Below, one piece after another: positions 217-13,038 of a stretch of DNA of 13,038 bases. The notes beneath the pieces were generated by a model. It ran no database searches and was not told the origin of the DNA. It was given only the letters and a program-made list of their open reading frames with translations. Source of the DNA: a virus (Duplodnaviria > Heunggongvirae > Uroviricota > Caudoviricetes); IMG/VR virus record IMGVR_UViG_2713896773_000022, positions 1 through 13,038 of that record. One strand, given 5' to 3'. The translations under genes were made by a program, and so were the position numbers. Position 1 is the first letter of the stretch. Each line of letters begins with the position of its first letter.

Positions 217-226
217 GGGTTAGTCC

Positions 227-535
227 TCAATCCCACTGCAAAACAGATGCGAAATATGCACCGCGACAAGGCTCATTCCGTGGATGATGCCAGCCTGAAT
301 ATCCATCTTGACCGCCTATTGGACTGACCTTGTACCAGCACTGGTAATAGCGAGCGCTACTAGCAAAATCAGCTGCGCCATCAGAGTCGATTACATCCTG
401 ATGCACCGATGCCTGAATAATTTCCGATTCGGTGTAATCACCACGCATGACAACAAATCGGGCATCGTCCGAGCAAAGATAATCACATGAGCCGTCATGT
501 TTACCTTTGGTGGTAGGTTTGATTAATTTATCCAT
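227..535 (-). CDS. Hypothetical phage protein (102 aa)
   Basis: ORF from track; ATG at 535..533 lies 1 nt after the TGA of the upstream gene (539..537), with GGGAGAG upstream (translational coupling). No family recognised. Confidence 0.5.
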   Translation of the reverse strand: MDKLIKPTTKGKHDGSCDYLCSDDARFVVMRGDYTESEIIQASVHQDVIDSDGAADFASSARYYQCWYKVSPIGGQDGYSGWHHPRNEPCRGAYFASVLQWD

Positions 536-536
536 C

Positions 537-1100
537 TCACTCTCCCTTCACGCCAATGCCAGCGGCGGTGGCTGATTCTTCATATGCGCGCTTAGCGGCA
601 TTCAGTATTGCTGCCAGTGGCGTATACCCGCCGTCCATTCGGATTGTGTTGTGGATGGTCGCCATCGTGTCTCTCAGCTTGCTATGACTAGCAGACAGCA
701 CTGCAATCCTGTCCTGATAATCAGCAACCATCCGTCGCACTTGTTCCAGTGGTGTAACGCTGCCACCATCTGGCGGATCCATGTACTGAGTGCCTGGTAG
801 GATTTCGCAGAGGGAATTATCCAGCGCCTCAAGTAACGCCTGTTTATCACGTAGCGCTTCTTCCAGTTCAGCAACATGACATTCGCTATCAATGAGGTTG
901 TTCTCTGCTGCTTCCAACTCATCCAGCATCGCCAGCACGGTAGTGGGGTTTGCTGCGGAGTTCAGCGCGTTCAAGGCAGTGATATCTGCATCNNNNNNNN
1001 NNNNNNNNNNNNNNNNNNNNNNNNNNNNNNNNNNNNNNNNNNGTGCGCCAACTGCTGCCGCTGCGATTTCACGCAGCGCCTGTTTGTCGATGTTGCTCAT
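537..1100 (-). CDS. Hypothetical phage protein, coiled-coil-like, interrupted by assembly gap (possibly Ead/Ea22-like; tentative)
   Basis: ORF spans the N-run 993..1042, so the frame across the gap is not verifiable. Start ATG 1100..1098 overlaps the stop of the upstream 90-aa ORF (ATGA). Ala/Leu/Glu-rich middle (LEEALRDKQALLEALD) suggests coiled coil. Confidence 0.4.
   Translation of the reverse strand: MSNIDKQALREIAAAAVGAXXXXXXXXXXXXXXXXXDADITALNALNSAANPTTVLAMLDELEAAENNLIDSECHVAELEEALRDKQALLEALDNSLCEILPGTQYMDPPDGGSVTPLEQVRRMVADYQDRIAVLSASHSKLRDTMATIHNTIRMDGGYTPLAAILNAAKRAYEESATAAGIGVKGE
993..1042. other. Run of 50 N (assembly gap or masked sequence)
   Basis: Directly visible in sequence; true length and content unknown. 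Confidence 0.99.
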
Positions 1101-1369
1101 TGGGCGGTTCCTTCGTAACCGATGGCTTCTGCAATTTCAGCAAGTGTCTCTGCACTTTCACCCACTGGCTCATTCATCCAGTCGAAGGAAACAAGCTTAC
1201 CGCCTTCGATAACGCCGATGTTGAAATCATCACTACCTTGTGTTTTCAGACCATGCTTGATTGCCTTATCGCGCTTATCGAAGTCAACGCCGTCTGTCGT
1301 GTATTCAACTCCATGGCCTTTCTCGTTGCACCACCAGTACTGCTGAATAACGATGTATGATTTTCTCAT
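1097..1369 (-). CDS. Hypothetical phage protein (90 aa)
   Basis: ORF from track; start overlaps the stop of the upstream 174-aa gene and its stop overlaps the start of the downstream gene (ATGA junctions), indicating an operon member. Confidence 0.5.
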   Translation of the reverse strand: MRKSYIVIQQYWWCNEKGHGVEYTTDGVDFDKRDKAIKHGLKTQGSDDFNIGVIEGGKLVSFDWMNEPVGESAETLAEIAEAIGYEGTAQ

Positions 1370-1890
1370 GACTGCACTCCTTTGCGAATCTGCTCCCTGA
1401 ACAAGCGGGCTGAGACGATGATGTCTCTGATGCGTACTGATTTTTCGTCGAACTGCTCACCACCGTTTTTAATATGCGCATCCAGTTCTGCACTGTGATG
1501 CCGAATGAAAGCGTTGAGGTCATGCGCCCGTACTTCAGCCAGGAAAACATCGGTGGCTGGTGTTTTGGCATTCTCCAACGATGCTATTGAATCCTGAGCA
1601 TCACAAAGCCGTAATAGCGCGTCCATTTGCTCGCCGTCAGCGTCATAGCTGAATAGGGCATAGTCATCATGGTGTGCTTCCATATCTTCTGAGGCATGCA
1701 GTATTCCAGCCTTCAGCCCCGCATTCTCCGCTGCCAGCGCATTAGCACGCACCAATTGCACTTCCAGTTGCGTTGCCAAATCGCTGATCAGCTTTGCCAC
1801 ACTGCGCATATCAACGGCACCACATTCTGCTTTCAGTTCCGAAGCCAACGCATGCCCGGCAGCTACGAGTTCTTTGGTTTTGTTGGTCAT
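1366..1890 (-). CDS. Hypothetical phage protein (174 aa), Ala/Leu-rich
   Basis: ORF from track; ATG 1890..1888 overlaps the stop of the upstream gene (ATGA). No enzymatic motif recognised. Confidence 0.55.
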   Translation of the reverse strand: MTNKTKELVAAGHALASELKAECGAVDMRSVAKLISDLATQLEVQLVRANALAAENAGLKAGILHASEDMEAHHDDYALFSYDADGEQMDALLRLCDAQDSIASLENAKTPATDVFLAEVRAHDLNAFIRHHSAELDAHIKNGGEQFDEKSVRIRDIIVSARLFREQIRKGVQS

Positions 1891-2180
1891 GCCGCGTTCT
1901 CCTGATGAATGATTTCCAGATCCAGCTTTTGAGCCAGAGCGTGTTCCGCTTTTGCGCCTGCTGATTTCTGCCAGCCGGACAGCAGGAAAATGCCGTCAGC
2001 GCAGCGGAGCATAGCGAGACAAATATCCATGTACTCTGGCTGGCTCAGGCCATCGGGAAGCGTCGCAGGGTTTAACACCACATGGCCTTCCGACGACAGG
2101 CGCATAGCCTCAAAATGGAACGCAGGGCGGTTAAATTTCGGGATGCCGGTCATTGGCCCAGCAATGTAAATTTTCATCAA
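1887..2180 (-). CDS. DUF4406 / nucleoside 2-deoxyribosyltransferase-like small protein (97 aa)
   Basis: N-terminal MKIYIAGPMTG is the typical start of NDT-like/DUF4406 Rossmann-like proteins (recognised from memory); gene starts 3 nt downstream of the helicase stop, so same operon. Confidence 0.55.
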   Translation of the reverse strand: MMKIYIAGPMTGIPKFNRPAFHFEAMRLSSEGHVVLNPATLPDGLSQPEYMDICLAMLRCADGIFLLSGWQKSAGAKAEHALAQKLDLEIIHQENAA

Positions 2181-3574
2181 AATTCCCTCTTTTTGTTGGG
2201 TCTGGCATCATTCGCGCGGCGTTTCTGCTCAGCAGCAGCCTGGTCACAGTCGTAGATCGCACCGTTGCGCTGGTCGCAATACACAACGCCGGTCGGGCCG
2301 TGGCGGTTCAGGCGCAACAGCAATTCGGTAGCCGCCTGATCTGCGTTTTCGTCGTATGCGCCTTCGCGGTAGATGCCGATCCAGTAATCACAATCCTGCT
2401 CAATCTGCCCGGTGTCGCGGGAATCACTCGGCATCGGGCGTTTGTTAGTGCGCTTCTCCAGATCACGGTTCAGCTGGGTAAGCAGCACCACGATGCAGTT
2501 CAGTTCCTTCGCCAGGTTCTTCAGCCCCTTCGTGATAATCCCGTAGGCCAGGTCGTTACGGTCAGCCTTGTCGGCGGTCATCAGGGTCAGATAGTCCACC
2601 AGCACCATGCCGACAGCGCCGCGTTCGCGTTTGATGCGACGTGACTCTGCGACGATATGCGCCAGCGTGATCCCGGGCGTGTCGTCGACGTACAGGTTTC
2701 CGTTCTGGGCCAGCCGTCCAGCGGCAGCAAAGGCCATTGCGACTTTTGTGTCGTCGTACCGATCGCCATAAAACACATCGGTATTTACGCGGCTCACCTG
2801 CCCCACCATGCGCTCCACAATCTGCTTATCCGGCATTTCGAGGCTAAACATCAGCGCGGGGAGCTGCTCAACTTCGGCACAGTTGACGGCCAGCTGGCTA
2901 TACAGCGTGGTTTTACCCATCTTCGGACGTGCGCCGATCACCATCAGAGCGCCTTTAACCAGTCCTTTCGGTTGCAGCAGGTCATCCAGCGAGCCAATCC
3001 CCGTCGACAGTCCACGCGTTGCGTCTGAGTCGCTCCAGCGCGCTTCCACCTCGTCCACCCAGTCGCCCATCACTTCCGAAAACTCGCGGAGCCCCCGGCG
3101 GTTACCGGTTTTCGCGTAGTCAGCGATATCAGTGAACAGGGTCTGAATAGCGTCAAACTTCTGGCTGGTGGTCATCCCGTTGCGGGAATACAGCAGCTCG
3201 GTGGCGCTGTTCAGCTTGTCAATGCCGTAACGCTCCATGGCTTTCTCGCGCACCAGCATGGCGTAGTGAACGATGTTCGCCGCGCTGGGAGTGTTTTTGG
3301 ATATCTCGGCCATGTAAGCGAAGCCACCAGCCTGCTCGCCAAGCCCTTTAGATTCCAGCGACTCAATCAGGGTGATCAGGTCGATAGGCTTCTGGTTGGC
3401 TGCCAGCTCCCGCATCTCGGCGAAAATCACCTGGTGGGGGCGGATGTAGAACGATTCTGGTTTGAGCATCGACATGGCGGTCTGGCAGCGATCGCTACCG
3501 CTATCCAGCATCATGCCGCCCAGCACACTTTGTTCGGCTTCGATGTTCTGCGGGATCATGTTCATGTCGGTCAT
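2177..3574 (-). CDS. dnaB: Replicative DNA helicase, DnaB family (phage-encoded, 465 aa)
   Basis: N-terminal IEAEQSVLGGMMLD motif, Walker A GARPKMGKTT, Walker B-like MVLVDYLTLM, overall DnaB architecture; start ATG 3574..3572 overlaps the stop of the O-like gene (ATGA). Confidence 0.9.
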   Translation of the reverse strand: MTDMNMIPQNIEAEQSVLGGMMLDSGSDRCQTAMSMLKPESFYIRPHQVIFAEMRELAANQKPIDLITLIESLESKGLGEQAGGFAYMAEISKNTPSAANIVHYAMLVREKAMERYGIDKLNSATELLYSRNGMTTSQKFDAIQTLFTDIADYAKTGNRRGLREFSEVMGDWVDEVEARWSDSDATRGLSTGIGSLDDLLQPKGLVKGALMVIGARPKMGKTTLYSQLAVNCAEVEQLPALMFSLEMPDKQIVERMVGQVSRVNTDVFYGDRYDDTKVAMAFAAAGRLAQNGNLYVDDTPGITLAHIVAESRRIKRERGAVGMVLVDYLTLMTADKADRNDLAYGIITKGLKNLAKELNCIVVLLTQLNRDLEKRTNKRPMPSDSRDTGQIEQDCDYWIGIYREGAYDENADQAATELLLRLNRHGPTGVVYCDQRNGAIYDCDQAAAEQKRRANDARPNKKREF

Positions 3575-4461
3575 AGCGCTTTCTCCCTGGTTTTCAGCAG
3601 GGTGTCAGAGCGCAACAGATAATCGAAACTGGCGCGCCAGCCTCTGTCGTTCTCACCGAAGTAAAACTTTGGTGCTCGCTCAGCGAAAGCGGCGAAGTAA
3701 TTCTCCACCGCCTCGACGGTTGGCTCTTTCAGTTCGGTCAGCAGGCGTTTGATAGCACGGCGACGTTTGTCGTTTAGTGCCTCTGCCTGGGGAAGGCGGT
3801 CTCCCAGGGTGGTGTTGTATGCAGACAGCACCGCCTGGTAGTCGATCTGAGTTTTCTTTGTGACAGGTTTTTCTTCCTGCCCGACACACTCCCCCTCTGG
3901 GGGTAGGGGGGTATTGTTTATTGTCTTTTGTATATTGTCTTTTGTGGTTAGCAGATCCTGCTTAGTTTTAAAAGCAGATTCTGCTAAGGTTTCACCATCA
4001 TCCTTAGCACCTTCCGCTAATGTTTCCTTAGCACTTTCAGCTAAGTTTTTATTAGCAACTTCCGCTAAAGAATCCTTAGCAGGTTTAGCTAATGTTTTGC
4101 AGAATCCGTTAATCTTTGTTTTCCACTCGATGATGCTGGTATTCATACCCACGCTACGCCCCTCCTGGACCAAGACTTTTTTGGCAACAAGCTGATTTTT
4201 TGCAGTCGAACAGTGTGTGTGATGCTTGGCAATCATCTGCTCAAGCTGGTCATTGCTAACCCAGTCCATCTTCTTGTTGTAGCCGTACGTCTTGCGCCAA
4301 ACAGCGAGGACGACACACAGCTCTGTTTCGCTTAGTCCGGATGCCATGACAGCATCGAGAAGCTCATTAGCAACACGAGTAAAACCATCTTCCAGCTGCG
4401 CCACGCGATGCTCCACGACCTCCAGCGGCGGCCTGTAGTCTGCTAACTTAACGACGCCCAT
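3571..4461 (-). CDS. Replication initiation protein, lambda O-like N-terminal domain (296 aa)
   Basis: N-terminus (FTRVANELLDAVMASGLSETELCVVLAVWRKTYGYNKKMDWVSNDQLEQM) parallels lambda O (LKRQFKVLLAILRKTYGWNKPMDRITDSQLSE, from memory); internal 8-aa protein repeats coincide with DNA iterons; immediately followed by the helicase gene. Confidence 0.85.
   Translation of the reverse strand: MGVVKLADYRPPLEVVEHRVAQLEDGFTRVANELLDAVMASGLSETELCVVLAVWRKTYGYNKKMDWVSNDQLEQMIAKHHTHCSTAKNQLVAKKVLVQEGRSVGMNTSIIEWKTKINGFCKTLAKPAKDSLAEVANKNLAESAKETLAEGAKDDGETLAESAFKTKQDLLTTKDNIQKTINNTPLPPEGECVGQEEKPVTKKTQIDYQAVLSAYNTTLGDRLPQAEALNDKRRRAIKRLLTELKEPTVEAVENYFAAFAERAPKFYFGENDRGWRASFDYLLRSDTLLKTREKAL
3891..3960. 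promoter_or_regulatory. AT-rich tract with a duplicated 12-bp motif, plus a C5-TCT-G5 palindrome, next to the iterons (putative unwinding element of an ori)
   Basis: attgtcttttgt occurs at 3930..3941 and 3944..3955; ccccctctggggg at 3891..3903 is followed by tagggggg. Lies on the downstream side of the iterons relative to O-gene transcription, as in lambda ori. Confidence 0.45.
4001..4096. repeat. Four tandem imperfect 24-bp direct repeats (iteron-like) inside the O-like gene
   Basis: tccttagcaccttccgctaatgtt / tccttagcactttcagctaagttt / ttattagcaacttccgctaaagaa / tccttagcaggtttagctaatgtt at 4001, 4025, 4049, 4073. Lambda ori has the same arrangement of iterons within the O gene. Confidence 0.7.
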
Positions 4462-4612
4462 TTTTCACTCCCGACGTAGCGAGAGCCAGACGGATCACGC
4501 CAACAAGACGTTCGGCGAACGCCCTGTTTTTTGACGCGGCAACCACCAGCCCGTCAGGGGAATCCTGAAGGCGTCGTTCCTCATTTTCCTGGTACTTTTT
4601 GCTCTTTGGCAT
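4448..4612 (-). CDS. Possible small basic ORF (54 aa), uncertain
   Basis: ATG at 4612..4610 with GAGG about 9 nt upstream; ends at TAA 4450..4448, overlapping the O-like start by 14 nt. Arg/Lys-rich (MPKSKKYQENEERRLQD...). Below the length cut-off of the ORF track; could be non-coding leader. Confidence 0.2.
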   Translation of the reverse strand: MPKSKKYQENEERRLQDSPDGLVVAASKNRAFAERLVGVIRLALATSGVKNGRR

Positions 4613-4690
4613 TAGAATTAACCTCGCAATTTACTGACGTTTGTTGCACCTGAGAGCCGCTTGTGTTCGTGCACAGCGGCTTTCGCCTTT

Positions 4691-4945
4691 TCAGAACAGG
4701 CCCGGCTGGGCGTTCCGTTTAACTTTTCGCTTCTCAAAGCGGTCAGCGGGTAACTGCTGCTTCTCCGCCCACAGTTTTGCGTGCCGTAAAACATCATCAA
4801 AAATCTTCCCCTTTCTGCTTACCTGGCTCATGCGCTTGTACATGTCGATAGCCTGGAACGCCCCCCCCTGAGCCACACCCAGAGAGAAACCGAGCTTCAG
4901 CAGTTCTTCACGCACATGCTTTTCGATGAATTCGATATGGTTCAT
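4691..4945 (-). CDS. Hypothetical protein (84 aa) between cII-like and O-like genes
   Basis: ORF from track; ATG 4945..4943 lies 3 nt after the cII-like stop with a GGTGGGA RBS; no family recognised. Confidence 0.55.
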   Translation of the reverse strand: MNHIEFIEKHVREELLKLGFSLGVAQGGAFQAIDMYKRMSQVSRKGKIFDDVLRHAKLWAEKQQLPADRFEKRKVKRNAQPGLF

Positions 4946-4948
4946 GGT

Positions 4949-5269
4949 TTAATCCCACCCCAGCGGCCCCGGCCTTGCCCGTTCGGCTTTCAGCCCGATA
5001 TCAGCGAGCGTTTCGACTGAGGCCAGATATTCACGCGATACCAGCACTGCTTCCGGTGGTGCGGCCTGAATCCCCAGGAAGGCCAGCTCTTTCGCCATGG
5101 TGCTGAAATGCCCTTCGGCTTTACGCCTGCTGGCTGTCGACTCGCTGATGCCCATATGCTCGGCGTAAGACTTCTGGCCCACTGATGCAAGCCGGTTGAG
5201 CAGGACGCTTTCGATCTCAACCGGATTGATAACTGGCGGGTCTAACTTTCGTGCGATTGCGTTCTCCAT
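4949..5269 (-). CDS. cII: CII-like transcriptional activator (106 aa)
   Basis: IESVLLNRLASVGQKSYAEHMGISESTASRRKAE parallels lambda CII IESALLNKIAMLGTEKTAEAVGVDKSQISRWKRD (from memory); sits directly downstream of the cro-like gene as in lambdoid phages. Confidence 0.7.
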   Translation of the reverse strand: MENAIARKLDPPVINPVEIESVLLNRLASVGQKSYAEHMGISESTASRRKAEGHFSTMAKELAFLGIQAAPPEAVLVSREYLASVETLADIGLKAERARPGPLGWD

Positions 5270-5310
5270 GGGTGATAATCCTCATAAAGTGAGTTACGCC
5301 ACTGGTTTGA

Positions 5311-5550
5311 CTAAATGGCGTGGTTATTTGGATGTGGAAAAATGGATGGAAGATCAGGCCGAAATTCGTATGCCTGAATCTCTCCGTTAACGGCATTAAC
5401 AAGGTCTGGGACATGAACAGGAGAAATACGCTTCTTCCCGTTCAACCAATCACAGATCGTTGATTGAGCCTTTCCACAGCGTTTAGCTAACTCTTTCTGA
5501 CTACCGACAAGGGCAATCGCTTTTTCTACTGCGGGGTTCTTCATAATCAC
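5311..5550 (-). CDS. cro: Cro-like / YdaS-family HTH regulator (79 aa)
   Basis: Divergent from the CI-like repressor across an operator region; AIALVGSQKELAKRCGKAQSTICDWLNGKKRISPVHVPDLVNAVNGEIQAYEFRPDL resembles Rac YdaS/Cro-like DUF1019 proteins (from memory). Confidence 0.7.
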   Translation of the reverse strand: MIMKNPAVEKAIALVGSQKELAKRCGKAQSTICDWLNGKKRISPVHVPDLVNAVNGEIQAYEFRPDLPSIFPHPNNHAI

Positions 5551-5565
5551 CTCAGCTATCAGTTT

Positions 5566-5640
5566 AAAGCGATTATGTATATCACTTTAGCGATTGTCAA
5601 TCGCCTATGCGATTCTTTGCCAAACAATCGCCTTGGCGAT
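5566..5640. promoter_or_regulatory. OR-like operator cluster (palindromes built on GCGATTG / CAATCGC)
   Basis: Perfect 15-bp palindrome GCGATTGTCAATCGC at 5590..5604; inverted half-sites GCGATT(5609..5614)/AATCGC(5626..5631); inverted arms ATCGCC-TT-GGCGAT at 5627..5640; isolated half-site AGCGATT at 5568..5574. Located between divergent repressor and cro-like genes. Confidence 0.55.
5572..5600 (-). promoter_or_regulatory. pR-like sigma70 promoter for the cro-like operon
   Basis: On the minus strand: TTGACA (plus coords 5600..5595), 17-bp spacer, CATAAT (5577..5572), about 20 nt upstream of the cro-like ATG at 5550. The -35 lies inside the palindrome GCGATTGTCAATCGC. Confidence 0.55.
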
Positions 5641-5645
5641 ACTAT
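5617..5645 (+). promoter_or_regulatory. Candidate sigma70 promoter for the CI-like repressor (pRM-like)
   Basis: TTGCCA (5617..5622), 17-bp spacer, TACTAT (5640..5645), followed by RBS AAGAGG and ATG at 5673; the spacer contains the operator arms at 5627..5640. Confidence 0.45.
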
Positions 5646-5672
5646 TTAAAGAGGACTTAAAAAGAGGCTTTT

Positions 5673-6365
5673 ATGGGATTCTCAGAACGCTTAGGGCACG
5701 CAATGGACGTCGCTGGATACACGCAGGCTAGGCTGGCGAAAGATGTAGGCATGGCTCAGTCCAGCGTAAATAAGTTACTTAAAGGTGCGAACGGCTCACG
5801 AAAAACAGTAGAGATCGCATCTGTTCTGGGTGTGCGTCCTGAATGGCTTTCAACGGGGCAAGGTGAGATGTTGGAATCTGGCATTCGCGAAGCAAACACG
5901 CTATGCCAAATTAAACCAGTTATGAATGAGGTTTACCGCGTGGATGTGCTTGACGTTAAGGCCAGCGCCGGTCCTGGCTCGCTAGTTACCAGTGATTTTA
6001 TCGAAACCATAAGAGCAATCGAATACACAACTGAACAGGCTCGCGCACTTTTCGGAAACCGCCCCGCAGATAATGTAAAAGTTATCACTGTTAACGGCGA
6101 CAGCATGGATGGAACCATCTCACCAGGAGATCAAATTTTTGTTGATACTGGCGTGACTCATTTTGATGGTGATGGCGTTTACGTATTTGTGTTCGGAAAA
6201 ACTCTGCACGTCAAAAGACTTCAGATGCAAAGAGATCGGCTTGCTGTCATCTCAGACAACCCTATCTACGAGAAATGGTATGTTGAGTCAGAAGACGAAG
6301 ATCAGTTCTACGTAATGGCTAAAGTGCTACTAAGACAATCAATAGAGTACAAGCGCTTCGCATAA
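5673..6365 (+). CDS. cI: CI-type phage repressor: N-terminal XRE-family HTH plus C-terminal S24 (LexA-like) autopeptidase domain (230 aa)
   Basis: HTH region YTQARLAKDVGMAQSSVNKLLKG; S24 domain with Ser in VNGDSMDGTISPGD and Lys in HVKRLQ, and an Ala-Gly bond in KASAGPGS as candidate autocleavage site; lower GC than neighbours; divergent from the cro-like gene. Confidence 0.9.
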   Translation: MGFSERLGHAMDVAGYTQARLAKDVGMAQSSVNKLLKGANGSRKTVEIASVLGVRPEWLSTGQGEMLESGIREANTLCQIKPVMNEVYRVDVLDVKASAGPGSLVTSDFIETIRAIEYTTEQARALFGNRPADNVKVITVNGDSMDGTISPGDQIFVDTGVTHFDGDGVYVFVFGKTLHVKRLQMQRDRLAVISDNPIYEKWYVESEDEDQFYVMAKVLLRQSIEYKRFA

Positions 6366-6366
6366 A

Positions 6367-6389
6367 CCCGGCTTGCCGGGTTTTTTATT
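6367..6389 (+). terminator. Rho-independent terminator after the cI-like gene
   Basis: CCCGG-CTTG-CCGGG hairpin (6367..6380) directly followed by TTTTTTATT; starts 2 nt after the cI stop. Confidence 0.7.
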
Positions 6390-6482
6390 GTTCCTGACCT
6401 GATTAAAATTCCCCCAATTCCTTCGCTAATATCATTTCATCGCACATTTCCCAATCAAATAAATAATCTTATAAATCATAAA

Positions 6483-6555
6483 ATTATCGCTTTAGCTAAA
6501 TAAATTATCGTTTAAGCGATTGACTCAAATAATCGCTTTAGCTATTGTTAGCTCA
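6483..6555. promoter_or_regulatory. OL-like operator repeats sharing the OR motif
   Basis: attatcgctttagcta (6483..), tttaagcgattgactc (6511..), aataatcgctttagctattg (6531..); the tttagcgattg-type motif also occurs in the cro/cI intergenic region at 5586..5596. Confidence 0.45.
6520..6548 (+). promoter_or_regulatory. Candidate pL-like sigma70 promoter
   Basis: TTGACT (6520..6525), 17-bp spacer, TATTGT (6543..6548), embedded in the operator-like repeats and pointing into the downstream plus-strand operon. Confidence 0.4.
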
Positions 6556-6628
6556 TCCAAACAACGCATTCAAACGCGAATGCCCTGGTAAAAGTTCTGG
6601 CAGCCGGGAAGACGGCAAGGGGATGAGA

Positions 6629-6718
6629 ATGGAAAAGGCATACGAGGAATATTTCGAAAGTCTGGCTGAAGGTGAAGTAGCGCTCAGCTTCGCAGAATTC
6701 GTGGAGGCTATTTCATGA
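6629..6718 (+). CDS. Possible very small ORF (29 aa; alternative start at 6623), uncertain
   Basis: MEKAYEEYFESLAEGEVALSFAEFVEAIS; AAGGGG/GGGGATGAGA upstream; its stop TGA (6716..6718) overlaps the ATG of the next ORF (6715), suggesting coupling. Too short to assess coding potential. Confidence 0.25.
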   Translation: MEKAYEEYFESLAEGEVALSFAEFVEAIS

Positions 6719-6915
6719 AAGCTGCTAACCCAGTACCAAATAACGGTCGTGCTGTCGTAATGCGCAACAGCCGCACCGGCGCAGCATGGCAGGTTTCCTA
6801 CGACTACCGCGACGGCACCTACTGGCACGAACCGCAGGGCAACCTGCGCAACATTCGACGCCCTTATGCCTCACGCACCATCGAACCAAATCTTGTGCCT
6901 GCGGGGACTCACTGA
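6715..6915 (+). CDS. Hypothetical small protein (66 aa)
   Basis: Strong RBS GGAGG 8 nt upstream of ATG 6715; stop TGA 6913..6915 overlaps the next ATG (TGATG). No motif recognised; not arginine-rich like N antiterminators. Confidence 0.5.
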   Translation: MKAANPVPNNGRAVVMRNSRTGAAWQVSYDYRDGTYWHEPQGNLRNIRRPYASRTIEPNLVPAGTH

Positions 6916-7112
6916 TGGGAGCCCTGTACGCATTAGTGCTGACCATCACCATGACGAACGGTGATTACCAGGACGCTGTTGTCGGTATTATCGACAATCA
7001 GCAGCAATGTGAAGCGGCAGCGAGTGAGCAAATGGGCGTCACTAACTGCTATCCAGTCGAAGGCATCATTCACGCTGACGAAACGCCAGCGGGTTATGAC
7101 GCGAAATTTTGA
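6915..7112 (+). CDS. Hypothetical small protein (65 aa); resembles small conserved lambdoid-prophage proteins (tentative)
   Basis: In-frame ATG at 6915 with GGGGA RBS, coupled to the upstream ORF; MGALYALVLTITMTNGDYQDAVVGIIDNQQQCEAAASEQMGVTNCYPVEG has a hydrophobic N-terminus and two Cys. The 108-aa track ORF (6786..7112) is judged an artefactual extension because it overlaps the preceding ORF. Confidence 0.5.
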   Translation: MGALYALVLTITMTNGDYQDAVVGIIDNQQQCEAAASEQMGVTNCYPVEGIIHADETPAGYDAKF

Positions 7113-7122
7113 GGGATAAGGG

Positions 7123-7395
7123 ATGTGCAACTGCATTAATGAGGTCGGTGCTCATATCGAAGCGCGACTGAAAGAGAAGGTTCCGGAAGGTGCTGAAGTA
7201 AGCGAAAGCACTTTTGATACCGGTTGGGATAATCAGGTTCTTTCTCTTTCCGAAGGCAAACTGTTTATGATGCTGAAATACAAACTGGCGTACCGGGCCA
7301 AAAAGAAAAACGGCGAAATGGCTAAAAACCTGAACCGCCTAGAAACCAACGTAAAAATGAGTTTCTGCCCGTTCTGCGGTGAATCTCAAGTTTAA
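7123..7395 (+). CDS. Hypothetical Cys-rich small protein (90 aa; CxC near N-terminus and CPFC near C-terminus, zinc-ribbon-like)
   Basis: ORF from track; MCNC...FCPFCGESQV; Lys-rich centre; moderate GC; same strand and spacing as operon neighbours. Confidence 0.55.
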   Translation: MCNCINEVGAHIEARLKEKVPEGAEVSESTFDTGWDNQVLSLSEGKLFMMLKYKLAYRAKKKNGEMAKNLNRLETNVKMSFCPFCGESQV

Positions 7396-7434
7396 CGGTA
7401 TTTTGACTATCAATCAGTTATAAAGGAAATAGCT

Positions 7435-8025
7435 ATGGGCTGCGATATTCATATGATGGTTGAGGTTAAACGCTCAATTAACGGTGAAGAAAAATGGGTT
7501 AATTATGATCATTTCCGTAAAAACCTATGGTATGGAAATGACGATGGCGAACGGGAATTTGAACGTATTGATTTAGAGAGTTCTCGTAATTATGCAGCAT
7601 TCTCCCAACTCTGCGGAGTAAGAGCATACGCTGACGAAACGCCTAAGATATCCGAACCACGCGGTATACCTGACGATGCTTGTGATTACACCAAGCAGGT
7701 ATCAGAAGAATGGGGGTGTGATGGACATTCTCACAGTTACGTCAGTCTTGCCGAAATTCGGGAGTTCAGAACCAACCTTACTCCAATGCCATTCAAAGGA
7801 ATGATTTCAGAAAAACAAGCGGCAGATCTTGATAAGGGTATTAAACCCGATTCATGGTGTGGGTGGACAAGCATGCCAGGCTTTGTTTTCCGGGAATGGG
7901 AAGATACGGTAGATGCTTTAAAAAATATTCATGAATCGCTGGAGAGCAGAGCTCTGGAATTATGGTGGTTAGAGAAAAATATTATCCCTGAAAATATTCG
8001 AATAGTTTTTTTCTTCGATAATTAA
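7435..8025 (+). CDS. Hypothetical protein (196 aa), lower GC, Cys/His/Trp-rich, no recognised family
   Basis: ORF from track; RBS AAGGAAA upstream of ATG 7435; visibly more AT-rich than flanking genes; candidate metal-binding residues (GCDIH near N-terminus, CDGHSHSY mid-protein); followed by an AT-rich intergenic tract. Confidence 0.65.
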   Translation: MGCDIHMMVEVKRSINGEEKWVNYDHFRKNLWYGNDDGEREFERIDLESSRNYAAFSQLCGVRAYADETPKISEPRGIPDDACDYTKQVSEEWGCDGHSHSYVSLAEIREFRTNLTPMPFKGMISEKQAADLDKGIKPDSWCGWTSMPGFVFREWEDTVDALKNIHESLESRALELWWLEKNIIPENIRIVFFFDN

Positions 8026-8104
8026 AAAGCAAATTTTCAATTAATCAAATACAGGCAGCCATTATGGTGCCGGGATTCTTACAACCTTTTTCAGAGGAAT
8101 GGAT

Positions 8105-8272
8105 ATGCAGGCTACGACCAAACAGCAGCAGGCGATGAACCTTATCGCGCTTCTGTGCCTGATGTACAACTTATCGCCAGCTGACCTTGAGGCTATTGCC
8201 CACCAGCTCGCGCACTTCGATGCAGTTTGTGATTACAGAACACAGGGGATTAACAATGCTGCGTGTCATTGA
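8105..8272 (+). CDS. Possible small ORF (55 aa), uncertain
   Basis: ATG 8105 with GAGGAA RBS; MQATTKQQQAMNLIALLCLMYNLSPADLEAIAHQLAHFDAVCDYRTQGINNAACH; stop overlaps the start of the exonuclease gene by 17 nt. Not in ORF track (under 60 aa). Confidence 0.35.
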   Translation: MQATTKQQQAMNLIALLCLMYNLSPADLEAIAHQLAHFDAVCDYRTQGINNAACH

Positions 8273-8927
8273 TACCGAAACGACTGGGCTGGAAGGCGGT
8301 CCGGAAACCGTGGTGGAAATTGCCAGCGTCGATATCGTCGACGGGGTGATCTGCAATCCAATGAGCGACCTCGTTAAGCCAGGCGTGGCGATCGGTTTTG
8401 AGGCCATGGCTATTCACCATATCACCGAAGACATGGTGGAAGGCGCGCCGCTGCTCAGTGAAGTAATTGGCCGCTATCTGGGGGCAGATGCCTACGTCGC
8501 CCACAACGCGAAGTTCGATAAAGCCAAACTTCCTGCAATGAACGCCCCGTGGATCTGTACCGCTAAGCTGGCGCGTTCGCTCCTGCCGGATCACAAGAGC
8601 CACAGCAACCAGTACCTGCGTTACAGCCTCGGACTGAAACCGGAAGTACCTGAAGGGCTTTACGCTCACCGAGCGCTGTATGACTGCTACGTCACCGCCG
8701 AATTGCTGCTCTATATGGGCCGCCTGGCGAAATGGACGATGGGCGAAATGCGCGCCATCTCCAATAACCCTTCCCTGCTGCATGCGCTCCGCTTCGGTAA
8801 GCATAAAGGCGTCTCGTTCGCAGAGCTGGCAAAAACAGAACCGGGTTACCTGCGCTGGCTCGTTGCCAACAGCGAAGACGAAGACGTGCTGTTTACGGCT
8901 GAACACTGGCTGAACGGGGGTAAATGA
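8256..8927 (+). CDS. exoX: DnaQ-like (DEDDh) 3'-5' exonuclease, homolog of host exodeoxyribonuclease X (223 aa)
   Basis: Alignable by eye along its length to E. coli ExoX as recalled: MLRVIDTETTGL (Exo I motif), VAHNAKFDK (Exo II), HRALYDCYVTAELL (Exo III), C-terminal FGKHKG...EPGYLRWL. Start chosen at internal ATG 8256 (RBS CAGGGG) instead of the track start 8187. Confidence 0.85.
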   Translation: MLRVIDTETTGLEGGPETVVEIASVDIVDGVICNPMSDLVKPGVAIGFEAMAIHHITEDMVEGAPLLSEVIGRYLGADAYVAHNAKFDKAKLPAMNAPWICTAKLARSLLPDHKSHSNQYLRYSLGLKPEVPEGLYAHRALYDCYVTAELLLYMGRLAKWTMGEMRAISNNPSLLHALRFGKHKGVSFAELAKTEPGYLRWLVANSEDEDVLFTAEHWLNGGK

Positions 8928-9595
8928 TGGGTACTCCAGTGCTGATCCTAGGTGACTCTGGCGCGGGCAAGTCCTACAGCCTGCGCAACTTCAATCCGGA
9001 CGATGTGATGCTGCTCCAGTGCATTCCCAAAATGCTGCCGTTCAAGTCTGCGGGCTGGAAACTTCACGGCAAGCTGCTGCCAGACGGAAGCAAACAGCGC
9101 GGTAACGTTCTGCGCTCGGATAACTGGGAAACGGTGCTGGACACCATCTATCGCATGGTGCAGTCGAAAACGCGCCGCGTCCTGATCATCGACGATTTCC
9201 AGGTGGTCATGCAGCACGAGAACATGAACCGCGCGTACCAGACCGGCTATGCCAAATTCACCGAAATGGCAGATCACATCTGGCGAATCATCATGGCGGC
9301 CACCGAGCTGCCGGACGACTTCCGCGTTTATTTCCTGGCTCACACCGAAGAGACCGAGGGAAAGATCCGCATGAAGACCACCGGGAAGATGCTCAACGAA
9401 AAGCTGACTCCAGAGGGCTATTTCTCCATCGTGCTGCGCGCCATCAAGAAGGACGGTAAACACGTTTTTCTCATCAAAGGCGATGACAACGACACCGCCA
9501 AAGCGCCGCCCGACCTGTTCCCGGACCAGACGGAAATGGACAACGACCTCCACGCCGTAGACGTGGCTATCACCGAATTTATGACCGAATTGTAA
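8924..9595 (+). CDS. P-loop NTPase, Sak4-like (AAA_24-type, RecA-related) putative recombination ATPase (223 aa)
   Basis: Walker A GDSGAGKS and Walker B VLIIDDF; size and position next to an SSB-like gene match the phage Sak4 plus cognate SSB arrangement (established knowledge, recalled); ATGA overlap with the exoX-like stop. Confidence 0.65.
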   Translation: MMGTPVLILGDSGAGKSYSLRNFNPDDVMLLQCIPKMLPFKSAGWKLHGKLLPDGSKQRGNVLRSDNWETVLDTIYRMVQSKTRRVLIIDDFQVVMQHENMNRAYQTGYAKFTEMADHIWRIIMAATELPDDFRVYFLAHTEETEGKIRMKTTGKMLNEKLTPEGYFSIVLRAIKKDGKHVFLIKGDDNDTAKAPPDLFPDQTEMDNDLHAVDVAITEFMTEL

Positions 9596-9611
9596 CTTTG
9601 AGGATTTAACG

Positions 9612-10343
9612 ATGAACCAACCAATGACTTTTATGTGGAACAACGAAACGGCTGAGATGGCGAAGAAAGCTGGCGCAACAGGCGGGATCAGCGAAACCGG
9701 CGCTTACGAGGGCGAAATCGTTTCTGCGGTGTACACCTTCGGGAAAGATGGCAGCCAATCCCAGGCGCTCGAACTCAGCCTGGACTCGAACGGGGCAAAA
9801 GCAAATTACTTGCGCATTAACTTCCTCGGCAAAGACGGCCAGCAGACTTTCGGCATGGGGCTGGTGTCAGCGCTGATGTGGGTCGCCCAGGTCAAACAGG
9901 CGCAACCGCAACAGGTACAGGGTCAAAACGGCATCGAATGGCACTGCCCGGCACTGGTTGGCAAAAAGGTGGGCCTGTTCCTCCAGAAAGTGCTGTACAC
10001 CAAAAACGACGGCGGTGACGGCTACAAGTTCGAAGTGCGCCACGTTTTCCAGCCGGGAACGCGTAAAACCTACGCCGAGCACGCTGAAAATGCCCCGGCA
10101 GAAGCGATCGCCGCGCTTGAACTGTCGATGAAGGATAAGGACGAACGTATCCACGGCGGCACGCAGTTCTCTGGTCCGCGCAATGCCCAACATGGCGGTA
10201 ACCCTTATGCAAATCAGACTGGAGGCGCACCACAGTCTCGCTTGCAGCAGAACAGCGGTCAGCCACCGGTAGACTTTGACGACGATATCCCGTTTGCGCC
10301 GATCGGTCTTCCATTCCCTTCTCACTCTATCTATGCGTTATGA
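9612..10343 (+). CDS. SSB-like / DUF669-type phage protein carrying the SSB C-terminal tail motif DFDDDIPF (243 aa)
   Basis: RBS GAGGA upstream; Gly/Gln-rich linker followed by PPVDFDDDIPF, nearly identical to the E. coli SSB C-terminal tip (MDFDDDIPF), but here followed by 18 more residues (APIGLPFPSHSIYAL). Confidence 0.65.
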   Translation: MNQPMTFMWNNETAEMAKKAGATGGISETGAYEGEIVSAVYTFGKDGSQSQALELSLDSNGAKANYLRINFLGKDGQQTFGMGLVSALMWVAQVKQAQPQQVQGQNGIEWHCPALVGKKVGLFLQKVLYTKNDGGDGYKFEVRHVFQPGTRKTYAEHAENAPAEAIAALELSMKDKDERIHGGTQFSGPRNAQHGGNPYANQTGGAPQSRLQQNSGQPPVDFDDDIPFAPIGLPFPSHSIYAL

Positions 10344-10498
10344 CGCACACACAGGACGAAATCAGGGTTGGCGCGGTGCGCCTTCCCTGGCTCAAAGAGA
10401 AAAACGGGTGGTTGCTACCGTGGGATGATGTCGTTACCAACCCACTGAAGGCGCAACGACTGGCAGAAGAACTTAACGAAAAGCAGGTGGCTGCATGA
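10340..10498 (+). CDS. Possible small ORF (52 aa) bridging the SSB-like and dam genes
   Basis: ATG 10340 overlaps the SSB-like stop (ATGA) and its TGA overlaps the dam ATG (ATGA): coupled at both ends. MTHTQDEIRVGAVRLPWLKEKNGWLLPWDDVVTNPLKAQRLAEELNEKQVAA. Not in track (under 60 aa). Confidence 0.4.
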   Translation: MTHTQDEIRVGAVRLPWLKEKNGWLLPWDDVVTNPLKAQRLAEELNEKQVAA

Positions 10499-11367
10499 GT
10501 TATTGTGCGGAGATATCGCGCCAAGAGACGGAAACAGAGCCGCGCACTTGGCAGCGCCCGTTCCTTAAATGGGCTGGAGGCAAATATTCGCTGCTGCCGG
10601 AACTGGATCGTTTGATCCCCGCAGGTAAACGCCTTATTGAGCCTTTTGTGGGTGGCGGCTCGGTGTTCCTTAACTCAGACAAGCACGAACGCTTTCTTCT
10701 GGCTGACGTCAACGCTGACCTGATTAACCTGTATCAGATGCTGGCGGTGGTCCCCGACTCGGTGATCTATGAGGCAATGAAGGCATTCAGGCATCTGAAT
10801 GATGCCGAAAACTACACGGTAATTCGTGAAGCATTCAACGCGCAGCGGCTGGATGCGGTTGAGCGCGCAGCAGCGCTCCTTTACCTCAACCGGCACTGCT
10901 TCAACGGGCTGATCCGTTATAACCTGGACGGTTTTTTTAACGTCGGCTTTGGGAAATATAAAGCGCCATATTTCCCGGAAGAAGAGATCAGGGCATTTAA
11001 GCGGAAGGCTCACGCATGCGTATTCATGAATGCAGGCTTCAGGCGCACGATCGCGCTGGCAGGTGATGGTGACGTCGTTTACTGCGATCCGCCTTATGAA
11101 CCGCTGCCCGGCACCGCTGGTTTCACTAACTACGCGGCTGGTGGGTTCTCATGGGATAGCCAGGTAGAACTTACGGAAAGCTGTGTGGCAGCCCACCAGC
11201 GGGGGGCAAAAGTGGTGATCAGCAATTCTACCGCTCCTCGCGTAATTGAACTTTACGAACAGCACGGCTTCACGCTGCACCGCGTCAGTGCTCGCCGGGC
11301 TATATCCAGCAAAGGCAGTACCCGCGAAACAGCGAGTGATGTCGTAGCCACTTTGGGAGTGCAGTGA
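10495..11367 (+). CDS. dam: DNA adenine methyltransferase, Dam family (GATC-specific by homology), phage-encoded (290 aa)
   Basis: FLKWAGGKYSLLPEL, EPFVGGGSVFLN, LYLNRHCFNGLIRYNL, and catalytic DPPY in VVYCDPPYEPL; alignable by eye to E. coli Dam as recalled. Confidence 0.9.
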   Translation: MSYCAEISRQETETEPRTWQRPFLKWAGGKYSLLPELDRLIPAGKRLIEPFVGGGSVFLNSDKHERFLLADVNADLINLYQMLAVVPDSVIYEAMKAFRHLNDAENYTVIREAFNAQRLDAVERAAALLYLNRHCFNGLIRYNLDGFFNVGFGKYKAPYFPEEEIRAFKRKAHACVFMNAGFRRTIALAGDGDVVYCDPPYEPLPGTAGFTNYAAGGFSWDSQVELTESCVAAHQRGAKVVISNSTAPRVIELYEQHGFTLHRVSARRAISSKGSTRETASDVVATLGVQ

Positions 11368-11609
11368 TGATGAAGCTGATTAATCGCAGTAAGCAATCAC
11401 CTATTGGTCGCCGCGCTTGCGATGTTGCGCTGGCAGCTCACTTGCAAACATATGGCGACTATGGGCGAAGCAAGATGAAAGAGACTTATACGGTGAAGGT
11501 TGAAGGCGTGAAAGTCTGGGTGGAGGTGGTGAACCGAAAGGCGAGCTACGTGGCCACAGCGATGACCGGCATGCGCCGTCTCCGCTCCCTGCCCGGGCAG
11601 GTTGGTTGA
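11367..11609 (+). CDS. Hypothetical small protein (about 80 aa)
   Basis: Track ORF starts at GTG 11364; first ATG at 11367 overlaps the dam stop. Basic protein with no motif recognised; the true start may be further downstream (Met at MKETYTVKVEG). Confidence 0.4.
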   Translation: MMKLINRSKQSPIGRRACDVALAAHLQTYGDYGRSKMKETYTVKVEGVKVWVEVVNRKASYVATAMTGMRRLRSLPGQVG

Positions 11610-11650
11610 AAAAGATTTTGAATGGCCCGAACGGGCAACTGGAGAGAGCT

Positions 11651-11848
11651 ATGGATGATATTTTGGTAACGTCAGACCTGACCAGTCGCTACAAAATTTC
11701 ACGCAAAACCCTTTGGTCATGGCAAAGTGCAGACACAATGCCTCGGGGCTTCGTATGCCCGTTCCCACCCCCTGACTGGCCCGGCAACCCTAACCGCTGG
11801 CGCTCTGAGTCAATCAAAGAGTGGGAGGATAAAAAGAAGATAAATTAA
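11651..11848 (+). CDS. alpA: AlpA-family phage transcriptional regulator / excisionase-like HTH protein (65 aa from ATG 11651)
   Basis: [21 protein letters not shown]...[23 protein letters not shown] matches the AlpA pattern (HTH followed by FPxP...RW...EW); RBS GGAGAG before ATG 11651; convergent with and adjacent to the integrase gene. Confidence 0.7.
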
Positions 11849-13038
11849 CTGAAGGGCTCTCCGATGATCTCTTCAAGATGGCTCTGCCAAACGCGGAGCC
11901 AGTGTTTCTGATCATCGATATAGTCATGAAGGTTGTAATGCGCCATAACCCCCACCATCTGATGCCCGAGCAGCTTTTCAATTACGTGCGGCGGGCAACC
12001 TAACTCAGAGAGATTTGTGGCTATCGTCCGCCTCATATCATGAAGCGACCACTCTGCCATACCTGTTCCATTCCAAATAGAACGGGCGTAATTGGATGCC
12101 ACAGGTGAATGAACGGGCGAATCTTTGATCCCGCCATCAATTTTACGTTGTGAAGTCACCAGGTGATTGGTGTTTATTTTCTTGAGGTGATTTCTGACCA
12201 GGTTAACGGCGGCGTCTGAGAGTCCCCTTCTAATATGTACCCGAGTTTTATAACTGCCCGCAGGCACGACCCACTCATTATCATCCAATCGAAACCATGA
12301 TCTCTCACTAAGTCGAATCTCAGCCGTACGGCATCCGGTAAGCATAATAAATTTCACCAGGAAAACGGACTCTATCGACATATGGCTTTTCAACCACTGA
12401 TAGATTTTGCGCAGATCGTCATCGTCCATCCTGCGAGTTCTCTTTTTAGGCTTTTGCCCGACATCAGATGGCAGTAATCCCTCGAGTGGGTTTGAGGCGA
12501 TCACACTTCTGTTAACGCAGAACCTAAACGCCCGTTTGCACAGCGAAAGCATGTAATGAGCCATCACCCTGCTTTCTATAGAATCGAAGACGTTGATCCA
12601 GTGCATTTTCGCTGTGTTATCGACTTTGACATTCTTCATCGGTTCGGCGATATGTTTCTCAAACACCTGGCGATAGTAATCGACTTTAACTAGCCCGTTA
12701 GCGATACAGTGCCTTTCAATCCAGTAATTGAACGCTTCGGCAACGGACATCGCTTCCTGTCGGGTCTGCTTATCCAGCTTCACCTGCTCTCGCGGATCCA
12801 GTCCCTCAGTTAACCAGTTTCTGAATTGTTGGCGACGCTCTCTTGCCTGGGTGATACTCATTGCAGGATAATCACCAACATTGAGTTTTACCGCTTTACC
12901 GGCCCAGCGATACCGATAGAAAAATGATATTTTTCCGGCCTGGCTGATTCTGGCGTTGAGCCCGTGCGAATCAGAAATAATCTCGATATCATCTCTTTTC
13001 TTGCCGAGCTCCTTCCTGAGCTTTGTGTCGGTGATCAT
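11845..13038 (-). CDS. int: Tyrosine site-specific integrase, P4-like family (397 aa)
   Basis: N-terminus [13 protein letters not shown]...[27 protein letters not shown] typical of P4-type integrases; C-terminal catalytic region with LHDMRRT and HxxVGVMAHY (His-x-x-Arg and Tyr). Start codon is the last three bases of the window. Confidence 0.9.

Follow-up and report, generated by a model that had tools for sequence, protein, structure and literature searches.

An ExoX paralogue linked to the Sak4 annealase and its single-strand-binding protein in a lambdoid prophage: a candidate 3′-end-processing recombination cassette

Introduction

Why would a prophage keep a 3′-5′ exonuclease of the ExoX family among its recombination genes? 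The question is raised by a 13,038-nt stretch of viral DNA (IMG/VR record IMGVR_UViG_2713896773_000022, positions 1 to 13,038; the whole stretch is called the window here), in which a gene for an ExoX-like nuclease stands directly before genes for a Sak4-like ATPase and a single-strand-binding protein (SSB). ExoX and other 3′-5′ exonucleases are usually taken to work against recombination, and deleting them is a way of improving recombineering. A preliminary description of this DNA had picked out the three genes as an atypical recombination module and had named three roles that the nuclease might have: recombination partner, anti-defence nuclease or proofreading accessory.

The 2.4-kb query that we used (8099-10498) is 100% identical to DNA of Escherichia coli TOK-001 (NZ_AP018395.1) and 96.6% identical to that of Citrobacter phage Omnitron, and over at least 80% of its length it is found in 9 of 5,426 complete E. 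coli genomes. We show below that the three genes are linked far beyond this one prophage and that a conserved small open reading frame (ORF) precedes them. We read the whole, tentatively and with somewhat less than an even chance of being right, as a four-gene recombination cassette (small ORF, ExoX, Sak4, SSB) in which ExoX would be the 3′-end resection nuclease that prepares strands for annealing.

Results

The nuclease

The plus-strand gene at 8256-8927 (ATG to TGA) encodes a 223-residue protein of the ExoX family of DEDDh 3′-5′ exonucleases. It has the expected two-domain layout, with an RNase_T domain (Pfam PF00929, E 7e-20, residues 4-151) followed by the ExoX-like C-terminal domain (ExoX-like_C, PF20600, E 1e-8, residues 179-206). 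It passes the NCBIfam ExoX equivalog model NF005937 (327.7 bits, cut-off 202), with residues 1-220 aligning to positions 1-218 of the 220 in the model, and it matches the E. coli ExoX structure (PDB 4FZX) at E 4e-48, with ~53% identity over the nuclease domain. Its initial description as a full-length ExoX homolog, a 3′-5′ exonuclease of the DnaQ family, is thus borne out by the equivalog model, the Pfam domains and the 4FZX match alike. The alignment that had been proposed as a check on the catalytic residues finds all five in place: D6, E8, D88, H138 and D143 align with D6, E8, D85, H134 and D139 of E. coli ExoX, where the active-site residues have been defined (PMC3753628). All five are also kept in 38 of 39 distinct sequences from loci where ExoX precedes Sak4 (ExoX-first) and in 10 of 10 from loci where it comes last (ExoX-last). 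By these sequence comparisons, the nuclease is a full-length ExoX paralogue with intact catalytic residues. The NCBI pipeline names it 'exoX', as though it were the host gene.

Residues that touch duplex DNA are partly retained as well. Of the double-stranded DNA (dsDNA) wedge, formed in E. coli ExoX by L12 and Q13, the enterobacterial phage clade keeps L12, and with K104 and R107 it keeps two of the three complementary-strand contacts of the E. coli reference (R87, K101 and R104). In the prophage protein E stands in place of Q13 and A in place of R87, and three extra residues follow G15.

By neighbour joining, the ExoX proteins of the phages come out as a monophyletic clade, whose sister group is the host ExoX of enterobacteria (53-58% identity). 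Because this clade lies beside host ExoX, and because the Sak4 proteins of the modules also group together, the sequences are consistent with a single capture of ExoX from an enterobacterial host lineage, followed by co-diversification with Sak4 and SSB. All four cassette genes are under purifying selection, with ratios of nonsynonymous to synonymous substitution (dN/dS) of ~0.36 for the small ORF, ~0.10 for ExoX, ~0.11 for Sak4 and ~0.14 for SSB, values that are rough since dS is saturated at ~2.

Two observations might suggest a proofreading accessory for phage genome replication: the PHROG name of this family, 'DNA polymerase exonuclease subunit', and the epsilon-subunit fold that ExoX has (PMC3753628). 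However, the protein clears the cut-off of the ExoX equivalog model and scores far under those of all epsilon and PolC models. The prophage has no annotated polymerase, encoding instead an O-like initiator and a DnaB-like helicase, and the nuclease gene occupies the early-left recombination position rather than the replication operon. We consider this role, the last of the three named in the preliminary description, very unlikely indeed.

Sak4 and the single-strand-binding protein

The next plus-strand gene (8924 or 8927 to 9595) encodes a core-only RecA-like ATPase of 223 residues. Its sequence makes the assignment as a Sak4 single-stranded DNA (ssDNA) annealase clear. It matches phrog_2872 ('Sak4-like ssDNA annealing protein') at 8e-84, and it shares 46-47% identity with HkaL of phage HK620, a Sak4 with known biochemistry (219 of 223 residues aligned; tblastn E 5e-58); the Pfam AAA_24 match (PF13479) is marginal (27.7 bits, cut-off 27), with AAA_22 scoring similarly. 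The initial concern that the ATPase might be unrelated to Sak4 is answered by this full-length homology together with the family matches. The protein has a Walker A motif GDSGAGKS (residues 10-17) and a Walker B motif LIIDD (87-91), and carries no extra domains. The P-loop pattern [AG]xxGxGK[ST] is kept in all Sak4 relatives; a P-loop suspected of being degenerate in one subclade turned out to be ADSGYGKT, which still matches the Walker A pattern. The HK620 Sak4 anneals ssDNA and requires its own SSB (PMC5928155); among Sak4 proteins, annealing that is stimulated by the partner SSB is known for HK620 alone.

The ExoX and Sak4 genes do overlap through ATGA at 8924-8927, as first reported, but the view of this overlap as a distinctive coupling does not hold up: the SSB gene and the DUF1317 gene downstream of it overlap in the same way, as do DUF1317 and dam, so the ExoX/Sak4 overlap alone is ordinary operon packing. 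What carries weight is that the two genes stay closely abutted, at −1 to +3 nt, across 21 distinct junctions.

The SSB gene (9612-10343, plus strand) starts 16 nt past the Sak4 stop codon and encodes a 243-residue protein of the HK620 HkaK type (SSB-2), with a phrog_743 match at 5e-45 and 36% identity to HkaK. An AlphaFold2 model gives the core (residues 30-180) a predicted local distance difference test score (pLDDT) of about 86-95 and leaves the tail disordered. All 50 listed PDB matches to the modelled core are OB-fold SSBs, PrgE or PriB, with individually weak scores of which the best is that of PrgE (E 6e-4, TM-score 0.55). As modelled, the core is an OB-fold ssDNA-binding fold, and the HkaK homology, the PHROG match and the model agree in placing an SSB-like protein after Sak4, as had been proposed.

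A search for DUF669 had also been suggested as a check, and it gave no match for this protein or for HkaK; since HkaK itself lacks a match, DUF669 fails as a test. Pfam, searched at E up to 0.01, has no family for this protein, for HkaK or for gp26 of Pseudomonas phage phiPSA1, and none of the 120 listed SSB homologues has a precomputed Pfam domain, DUF669 appearing in two UniRef names. A sequence search of the PDB found nothing meaningful for Sak4 or SSB.

The SSB tail (10276-10343) is unusual. A DDDIPF motif at residues 223-228 is followed by 15 more residues, APIGLPFPSHSIYAL, so that the motif does not form the C-terminal tip; the majority of SSB relatives stop exactly at IPF. Partner proteins normally bind the free C-terminal Phe of an SSB, and the 15-residue extension may therefore alter partner binding. 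Similar tail extensions are seen in unrelated module backgrounds (loci L015, L027, L080 and L082).

Linkage of ExoX to Sak4 and SSB

Linkage was surveyed from both sides, one survey being seeded with Sak4 (the best 80 viral contigs of more than 558 Sak4 relatives) and the other with ExoX (one genome per bacterial species). The counts come from similarity-ranked subsets in which many loci are kin by descent, and we treat them as qualitative. On the Sak4 side, ExoX was found within 4 kb in 34 of the 80 viral loci, a proportion that is not a population frequency since these are the best-scoring of the relatives, and it stood immediately upstream in every one of the 23 viral loci with a Sak4 at 68% identity or more to that of the TOK-001 prophage. 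On the ExoX side, the scan gave 17 loci at 61% identity or more, from 17 Enterobacterales species; 16 of these have Sak4 and SSB directly downstream, and the 17th ends at a contig end. Four ExoX loci with 54-55% identity, of which three are in Yersinia genomes and one is in an Enterobacterales metagenome-assembled genome, have neither Sak4 nor SSB, and the homologues below this level in the scan are likewise without Sak4; all of these look like host exoX genes. Three more ExoX homologues at 59-71% identity (from Yersinia ruckeri, Klebsiella pneumoniae and a metagenome) show the order small ORF, ExoX, Sak4, SSB right after cI.

The linkage of ExoX with Sak4 and SSB is demonstrably non-random. 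The co-occurrence survey called for in the preliminary description thus found the ExoX paralogue strictly linked to Sak4-SSB, and given this strict linkage the role of recombination partner is by far the best of the three that were named there.

The same linkage bears on the idea of a nuclease that is unrelated to recombination and merely travels with the module, for example as an anti-defence enzyme degrading the nucleic-acid signals or guides of a defence system. Early-left operons do carry many accessory genes, and DEDDh domains are present in CRISPR-associated and candidate defence proteins. The PADLOC matches of our nuclease (DEDDh at 1e-31 and PDC-S48; weakly mad8), which we considered as signs of a defence system, were rejected as generic domain matches. 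Moreover, the adjacency to Sak4-SSB is strict down to 59% identity, and the co-diversification, the conserved abutment and a separate arrangement in Pseudomonas phages (see below) are unlike the behaviour of a passenger gene. An anti-defence or otherwise unrelated function seems to us quite improbable.

Exchange of accessory genes

Taking 101 Sak4 loci together, SSB adjoins Sak4 in all but a few, the exceptions being mostly losses at contig ends, and the accessory genes beside this pair fall into a small number of types. The small ORF and ExoX lie upstream in 43 loci, Abc2 lies downstream in 18 (the HK620 type), a Mu-Gam-like gene lies downstream in 14, ExoX lies downstream in 10, and nothing recognisable is present in ~16. 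ExoX never co-occurs with Abc2 or with Mu-Gam among the 101 (0 cases). Pseudomonas-type Sak4 proteins that are 88-90% identical to one another have ExoX after them in one phage and Mu-Gam in another. From these sequence comparisons, the accessory position beside Sak4-SSB is apparently exchangeable.

Several loci showed additional features. In some copies the cassette is broken between Sak4 and SSB. A 1.9-kb insert between Sak4 and SSB in locus L086 (Apirhabdus apintestini, 6340-8293) was considered as a possible module gene and rejected, being an IS21-type insertion element (IstA/IstB) that interrupts the pair. In two E. coli strains the cassette match is in two pieces, which together span ~450 bp more than the query, and in one of these an HNH endonuclease is annotated under the match. 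A coiled-coil protein of ~370 residues (phrog_1376) recurs beside Pseudomonas-type Sak4-SSB, either upstream of Sak4 or after ExoX (L003 at 2196-3338, L059, L066, L070 and L080), and may be another accessory of the module.

A conserved small ORF before ExoX

The three genes of the preliminary description are all confirmed, but as a unit they are incomplete, a small plus-strand ORF of 57 codons at 8099-8272 having been overlooked (PGAP starts it at 8105 and labels it hypothetical). It overlaps the start of ExoX by 17 nt, and an overlap of 13-23 nt is kept across the modules. It precedes ExoX in all 43 of the ExoX-first modules that we collected, which contain 40 distinct sequences of it, with the conserved motif L..LC..L.PADLE.IAHQLA.FDAV.D. 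Its relatives are close homologues only (73-93% identity, 15 clusters), and none could be recognised outside the ExoX cassette. No family match was found in Pfam, PHROG, NCBIfam or PADLOC, and the AlphaFold2 model, a two-helix hairpin with a pLDDT of 79.5, had zero Foldseek matches in the PDB. Judging by its sequence conservation and constant position, the small ORF is probably the fourth member of the cassette.

Position within the early-left operon

The window covers the immunity, replication and early-left part of a lambdoid prophage of ~41.8 kb (NZ_AP018395.1, about 1299900-1341700), which is inserted between kch and yciI. Its minus strand carries the replication genes and cII/cro (2176-5550), and these are followed by cI, for a CI-type repressor (5673-6365). 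A tIMM-like terminator (6364-6383) comes after cI and just upstream of three 18-nt direct repeats (6481-6544, plus strand; AAATTATCGCTTTAGCTA-like), of which 0.01 would be expected where 3 are observed. These are candidate OL operators, and they overlap a pL-like sigma-70 promoter, TTGACT-17-TATTGT (6520-6548, plus strand). Related ATCGC half-sites in the gap between cro and cI (5560-5640) are candidate OR operators for this immunity type.

Downstream of the promoter, tightly packed plus-strand genes run on to 11609. No strong terminator-like site was found from the pL region to 11879; one weak 5-pair site occurs at 10914, inside dam. The operon meets a convergent integrase gene, int (11845-13038). 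With cI at 5673-6365, pL at ~6520, the cassette at 8099-10343 and int at 11845-13038, the cassette is at the position of a lambdoid Rec module. Its contiguous SSB, nuclease and annealase genes, lying between cI/pL and int within the early-left operon, make it a lambdoid Rec module in the sense of Zheng et al. (2025). From this layout, early expression of the cassette from the CI-repressed leftward operon is predicted.

Chi sites and RecBCD

The window contains 7 Chi sites (GCTGGTGG) where 0.4 are expected from shuffled sequences, at positions 2596, 3164, 3324, 4543, 8200, 11137 and 11193. The whole prophage has 26 in 41.8 kb, 17 on the terminase-sense strand and 9 on the other, and the flanking host DNA has 3 in 19.6 kb. 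Chi density is 2.3 per 10 kb in ExoX-first loci versus 0.22 in Abc2 loci, a difference of ~10-fold. None of the early-left genes was recognised as a homologue of Gam, GamL, Abc2 or Mu-Gam. Chi richness without RecBCD inhibition is a pattern that PMC12315714 describes for lambdoid phages.

These data bear on a reading in which ExoX substitutes for Abc2 or Mu-Gam in managing ends or interfering with the host, either by making long 5′ overhangs on which RecBCD cannot load or by removing 3′ tails, so that host RecA stays off the phage DNA and events are channelled to Sak4. ExoX does occupy the accessory position of Abc2 and Mu-Gam without ever accompanying either one, and no other anti-RecBCD candidate was recognised in the operon. 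However, the Chi enrichment argues that RecBCD is active on the phage DNA, working productively there instead of being evaded, which weakens the case for ExoX or the small protein as a RecBCD evader. In addition, Salmonella phage epsilon34 has a different nuclease of the DEDD superfamily alongside Abc2. We regard the substitute reading as improbable.

Neighbouring genes

Just upstream of the cassette are two conserved plus-strand genes, phrog_7033 (7123-7395; 90 residues, CxxC...CxxC) and phrog_10141 (7435-8025; 196 residues). They have faint PADLOC matches only and vary among relatives, and they are probably outside the recombination module.

Immediately after SSB is a plus-strand gene for a 52-residue DUF1317 protein (10340-10498; PF07026, 4e-17). 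DUF1317 follows SSB in only a subset of ExoX-first loci, and its homologues were found in 212 phage records; in the lambda-type records listed (21, 434 and Stx phages) the homologue adjoins or overlaps a gene annotated 'exonuclease'. This suggests that DUF1317 is conserved, as an accessory or at the boundary, in Rec modules whose nucleases differ greatly; that it belongs to the ExoX cassette is uncertain. The gene after it encodes a Dam DNA methyltransferase (10495-11367, plus strand). A methyltransferase gene commonly follows the cassette, and its type varies among relatives, being Dam here and MT-A70 or others elsewhere.

An 80-residue ORF between DUF4060 and the integrase (11606-11848, plus strand) is left without annotation by RefSeq. 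It weakly matches the excisionase Xis_Gifsy_1 (E 1e-3), and is probably the Xis of the prophage. An Rfam search of the window gave no match.

Discussion

A role for ExoX in annealing

We can now return to the question of what a 3′-5′ exonuclease might do beside an annealase. Strand invasion must prime synthesis, while annealing is intrinsically independent of 3′ tails. On our tentative reading, ExoX would be the end-processing nuclease owned by the cassette and would attack the 3′ ends of linear phage DNA. Such 3′-5′ resection would lay bare complementary strands that carry 5′ tails, the phage SSB would coat these, and Sak4, stimulated by SSB as in HK620, would anneal the coated strands. The outcome would be single-strand annealing with a polarity, which we infer, opposite to that of lambda Exo/Beta or RecE/RecT resection. 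It would operate in a Chi-rich phage that does not inhibit RecBCD, and the small protein would presumably regulate the ExoX nuclease or act as its adaptor.

Some of these steps have precedents. E. coli ExoX acts on blunt and on 3′-recessed (5′-overhanging) duplex ends (PMC3753628), and it digests 3′-overhanging ones as well. In vaccinia virus the 3′-5′ proofreading exonuclease of the polymerase drives annealing-based joining of duplexes (PMC1802553). A further-reaching proposal is that ExoX under control of the small protein, the atypical SSB and Sak4 make up a self-contained annealing machine of reversed polarity, a bacterial-virus counterpart of the poxvirus system. We think this conceivable, yet on balance we lean against it.

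A number of points weigh against 3′-end resection by ExoX. E. coli ExoX is distributive (PMC3753628), and would thus be poorly suited to long resection if no partner stimulates it. The residue equivalent to K101 is alanine in 10 of 10 Pseudomonas-type nucleases, so with this contact lost dsDNA resection is not obviously common to both clades. Host 3′-5′ exonucleases, ExoX included, lower oligonucleotide recombineering (PMC3434165), and in general they inhibit recombination, as PMC12315714 states. If 3′ tails are made by RecBCD at Chi, a 3′-5′ nuclease would destroy them. The choice of the best-scoring Sak4 relatives in our survey, mentioned above, also belongs on this side.

Three of these points, namely the distributive ExoX, the duplex contact lost in Pseudomonas and the lowering of recombineering by host ExoX, make trimming after annealing the main rival. 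Here RecBCD-Chi, RecJ or replication would supply the ssDNA, and ExoX would remove unannealed 3′ tails or flaps from the intermediates annealed by Sak4 so that priming or ligation can follow. A distributive enzyme suits the removal of flaps that halts at duplex (PMC3753628), the DEDDh core is kept in both phage clades while the dsDNA contact K101 is lost in one, and RecBCD-made 3′ tails are to be expected in a Chi-rich phage with no recognised anti-RecBCD gene. On the other hand, the host is already equipped with several redundant 3′ ssDNA exonucleases, its own ExoX among them, which makes the reason for a dedicated copy doubtful. The mutual exclusion with Abc2 and Mu-Gam, which act on dsDNA ends before annealing, better fits a pre-synaptic role, and the wedge residue L12 and two of the three complementary-strand contacts are retained in the enterobacterial clade. 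We judge trimming unlikely, although it deserves to be taken seriously, and we continue to prefer resection of 3′ ends before annealing.

The sequence comparisons indicate that the cassette is stably inherited across Enterobacterales, and it offers a clean case of a host repair gene domesticated by prophages. That ExoX is kept together with an annealase and an SSB, with a distant analogue in Pseudomonas phages, implies a positive role for 3′-end processing in phage single-strand annealing. Resolving this role would clarify how RecA-core annealases are supplied with substrate, and would explain Rec modules that lack a RecBCD inhibitor in Chi-rich genomes. If the machine of reversed polarity is real, it would be a potentially portable, RecA-independent system for dsDNA recombineering with RecBCD active, and a compact toolkit might be possible.

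Comparison with known systems

The partnership of Sak4 with SSB is established (PMC5928155, PMC2896510), and Mu-Gam-like neighbours of Sak4 have been noted in Firmicutes (PMC8093625). Among the closest known systems is the HK620 module, hkaM-hkaL(sak4)-hkaK(ssb)-abc2 (Hutinet et al. 2018, PMC5928155), which shares the lambdoid early-left position, a small ORF before the core and the order Sak4 then SSB. However, HK620 has no nuclease and its Abc2 redirects RecBCD, whereas the TOK-001 cassette has an ExoX paralogue and lacks Abc2. The small ORF shows no detectable similarity to HkaM (the jackhmmer hit sets are separate, and the ORF has no match to the HkaM PHROG). The HK620 SSB tail stops at its aromatic tip, whereas that of the TOK-001 prophage is extended; and HK620-type loci are Chi-poor, whereas ExoX-first loci are Chi-rich.

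That a lambdoid Rec module may hold a DnaQ-type 3′-5′ nuclease, an arrangement which the preliminary description had treated as atypical, was already published in 2025: Zheng, Casjens et al. (PMC12315714) report DnaQ-like 3′-5′ nucleases as likely legitimate members of Rec modules and remark on the paradox. Apart from that paper, whose supplementary tables may list the combination, and an unrelated phage-therapy study, we found no literature pairing Sak4 with ExoX or DnaQ. Two phages were considered as carriers of the same module and rejected. Like the TOK-001 prophage, epsilon34 has a 3′-5′ nuclease of the DEDD superfamily tightly packed among early-left SSB and annealase genes, but this nuclease, gp34, is of the Rv2179c-like family (PF16473, 2e-73) and has no significant similarity to the ExoX-like protein; the epsilon34 module is Erf, a bacterial-type SSB, the nuclease and Abc2, whereas ours is ExoX, the RecA-like Sak4 and an HK620-type SSB, with no anti-RecBCD gene found. 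Pocitis76, which in PMC12315714 appears as the prototype of 'SSB + nuclease + annealase, no anti-RecBCD', has the order Erf-HNH-SSB.

In Pseudomonas phages phiPSA1 (gp27-gp26-gp25, NC_024365), MR13 and MR15, genes for Sak4, an HK620-type SSB and a two-domain DEDDh nuclease also adjoin on one strand. Their order differs, being Sak4-SSB-nuclease, and there is no small upstream ORF; the nuclease is 26-28% identical to our ExoX-like protein, with the same two-domain layout and an intact DEDDh core but with the K101 equivalent lost, and close relatives of phiPSA1 have Mu-Gam or nothing at its position. RefSeq annotates the phiPSA1 genes singly, with no remark on their pairing. Since the enterobacterial phage ExoX is much closer to host ExoX than to the Pseudomonas clade, the two ExoX-Sak4 associations are probably of separate origin.

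In lambda Red (Exo/Beta/Gam) and Rac RecE/RecT, too, a nuclease gene abuts an annealase gene in an early-left operon, and DUF1317 follows exo in lambda-type phages as it does the ExoX cassette. The cassette is nevertheless not of this kind: the nucleases of those systems are 5′-3′ enzymes of the PD-(D/E)XK type (YqaJ/RecE) and their annealases are Rad52-like, whereas here a 3′-5′ DEDDh nuclease goes with a P-loop RecA-like annealase. Poxviruses resemble the proposed mechanism in that 3′-5′ resection of duplex ends exposes strands for annealing-based viral recombination (PMC1802553, PMC9415595). They differ in that their exonuclease, an unrelated protein, is built into a B-family polymerase as a domain, in that no RecA-type annealase is involved, and in being viruses of eukaryotes. 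With E. coli ExoX (4FZX) the phage nuclease shares its domain architecture, its catalytic residues and the L12 wedge residue; unlike it, the phage protein is prophage-borne, belongs to a separate clade and is always linked to Sak4-SSB. The cassette stands out among all of these systems in that it combines a RecA-like annealase and an HK620-type SSB with a true paralogue of ExoX and with a small protein dedicated to it.

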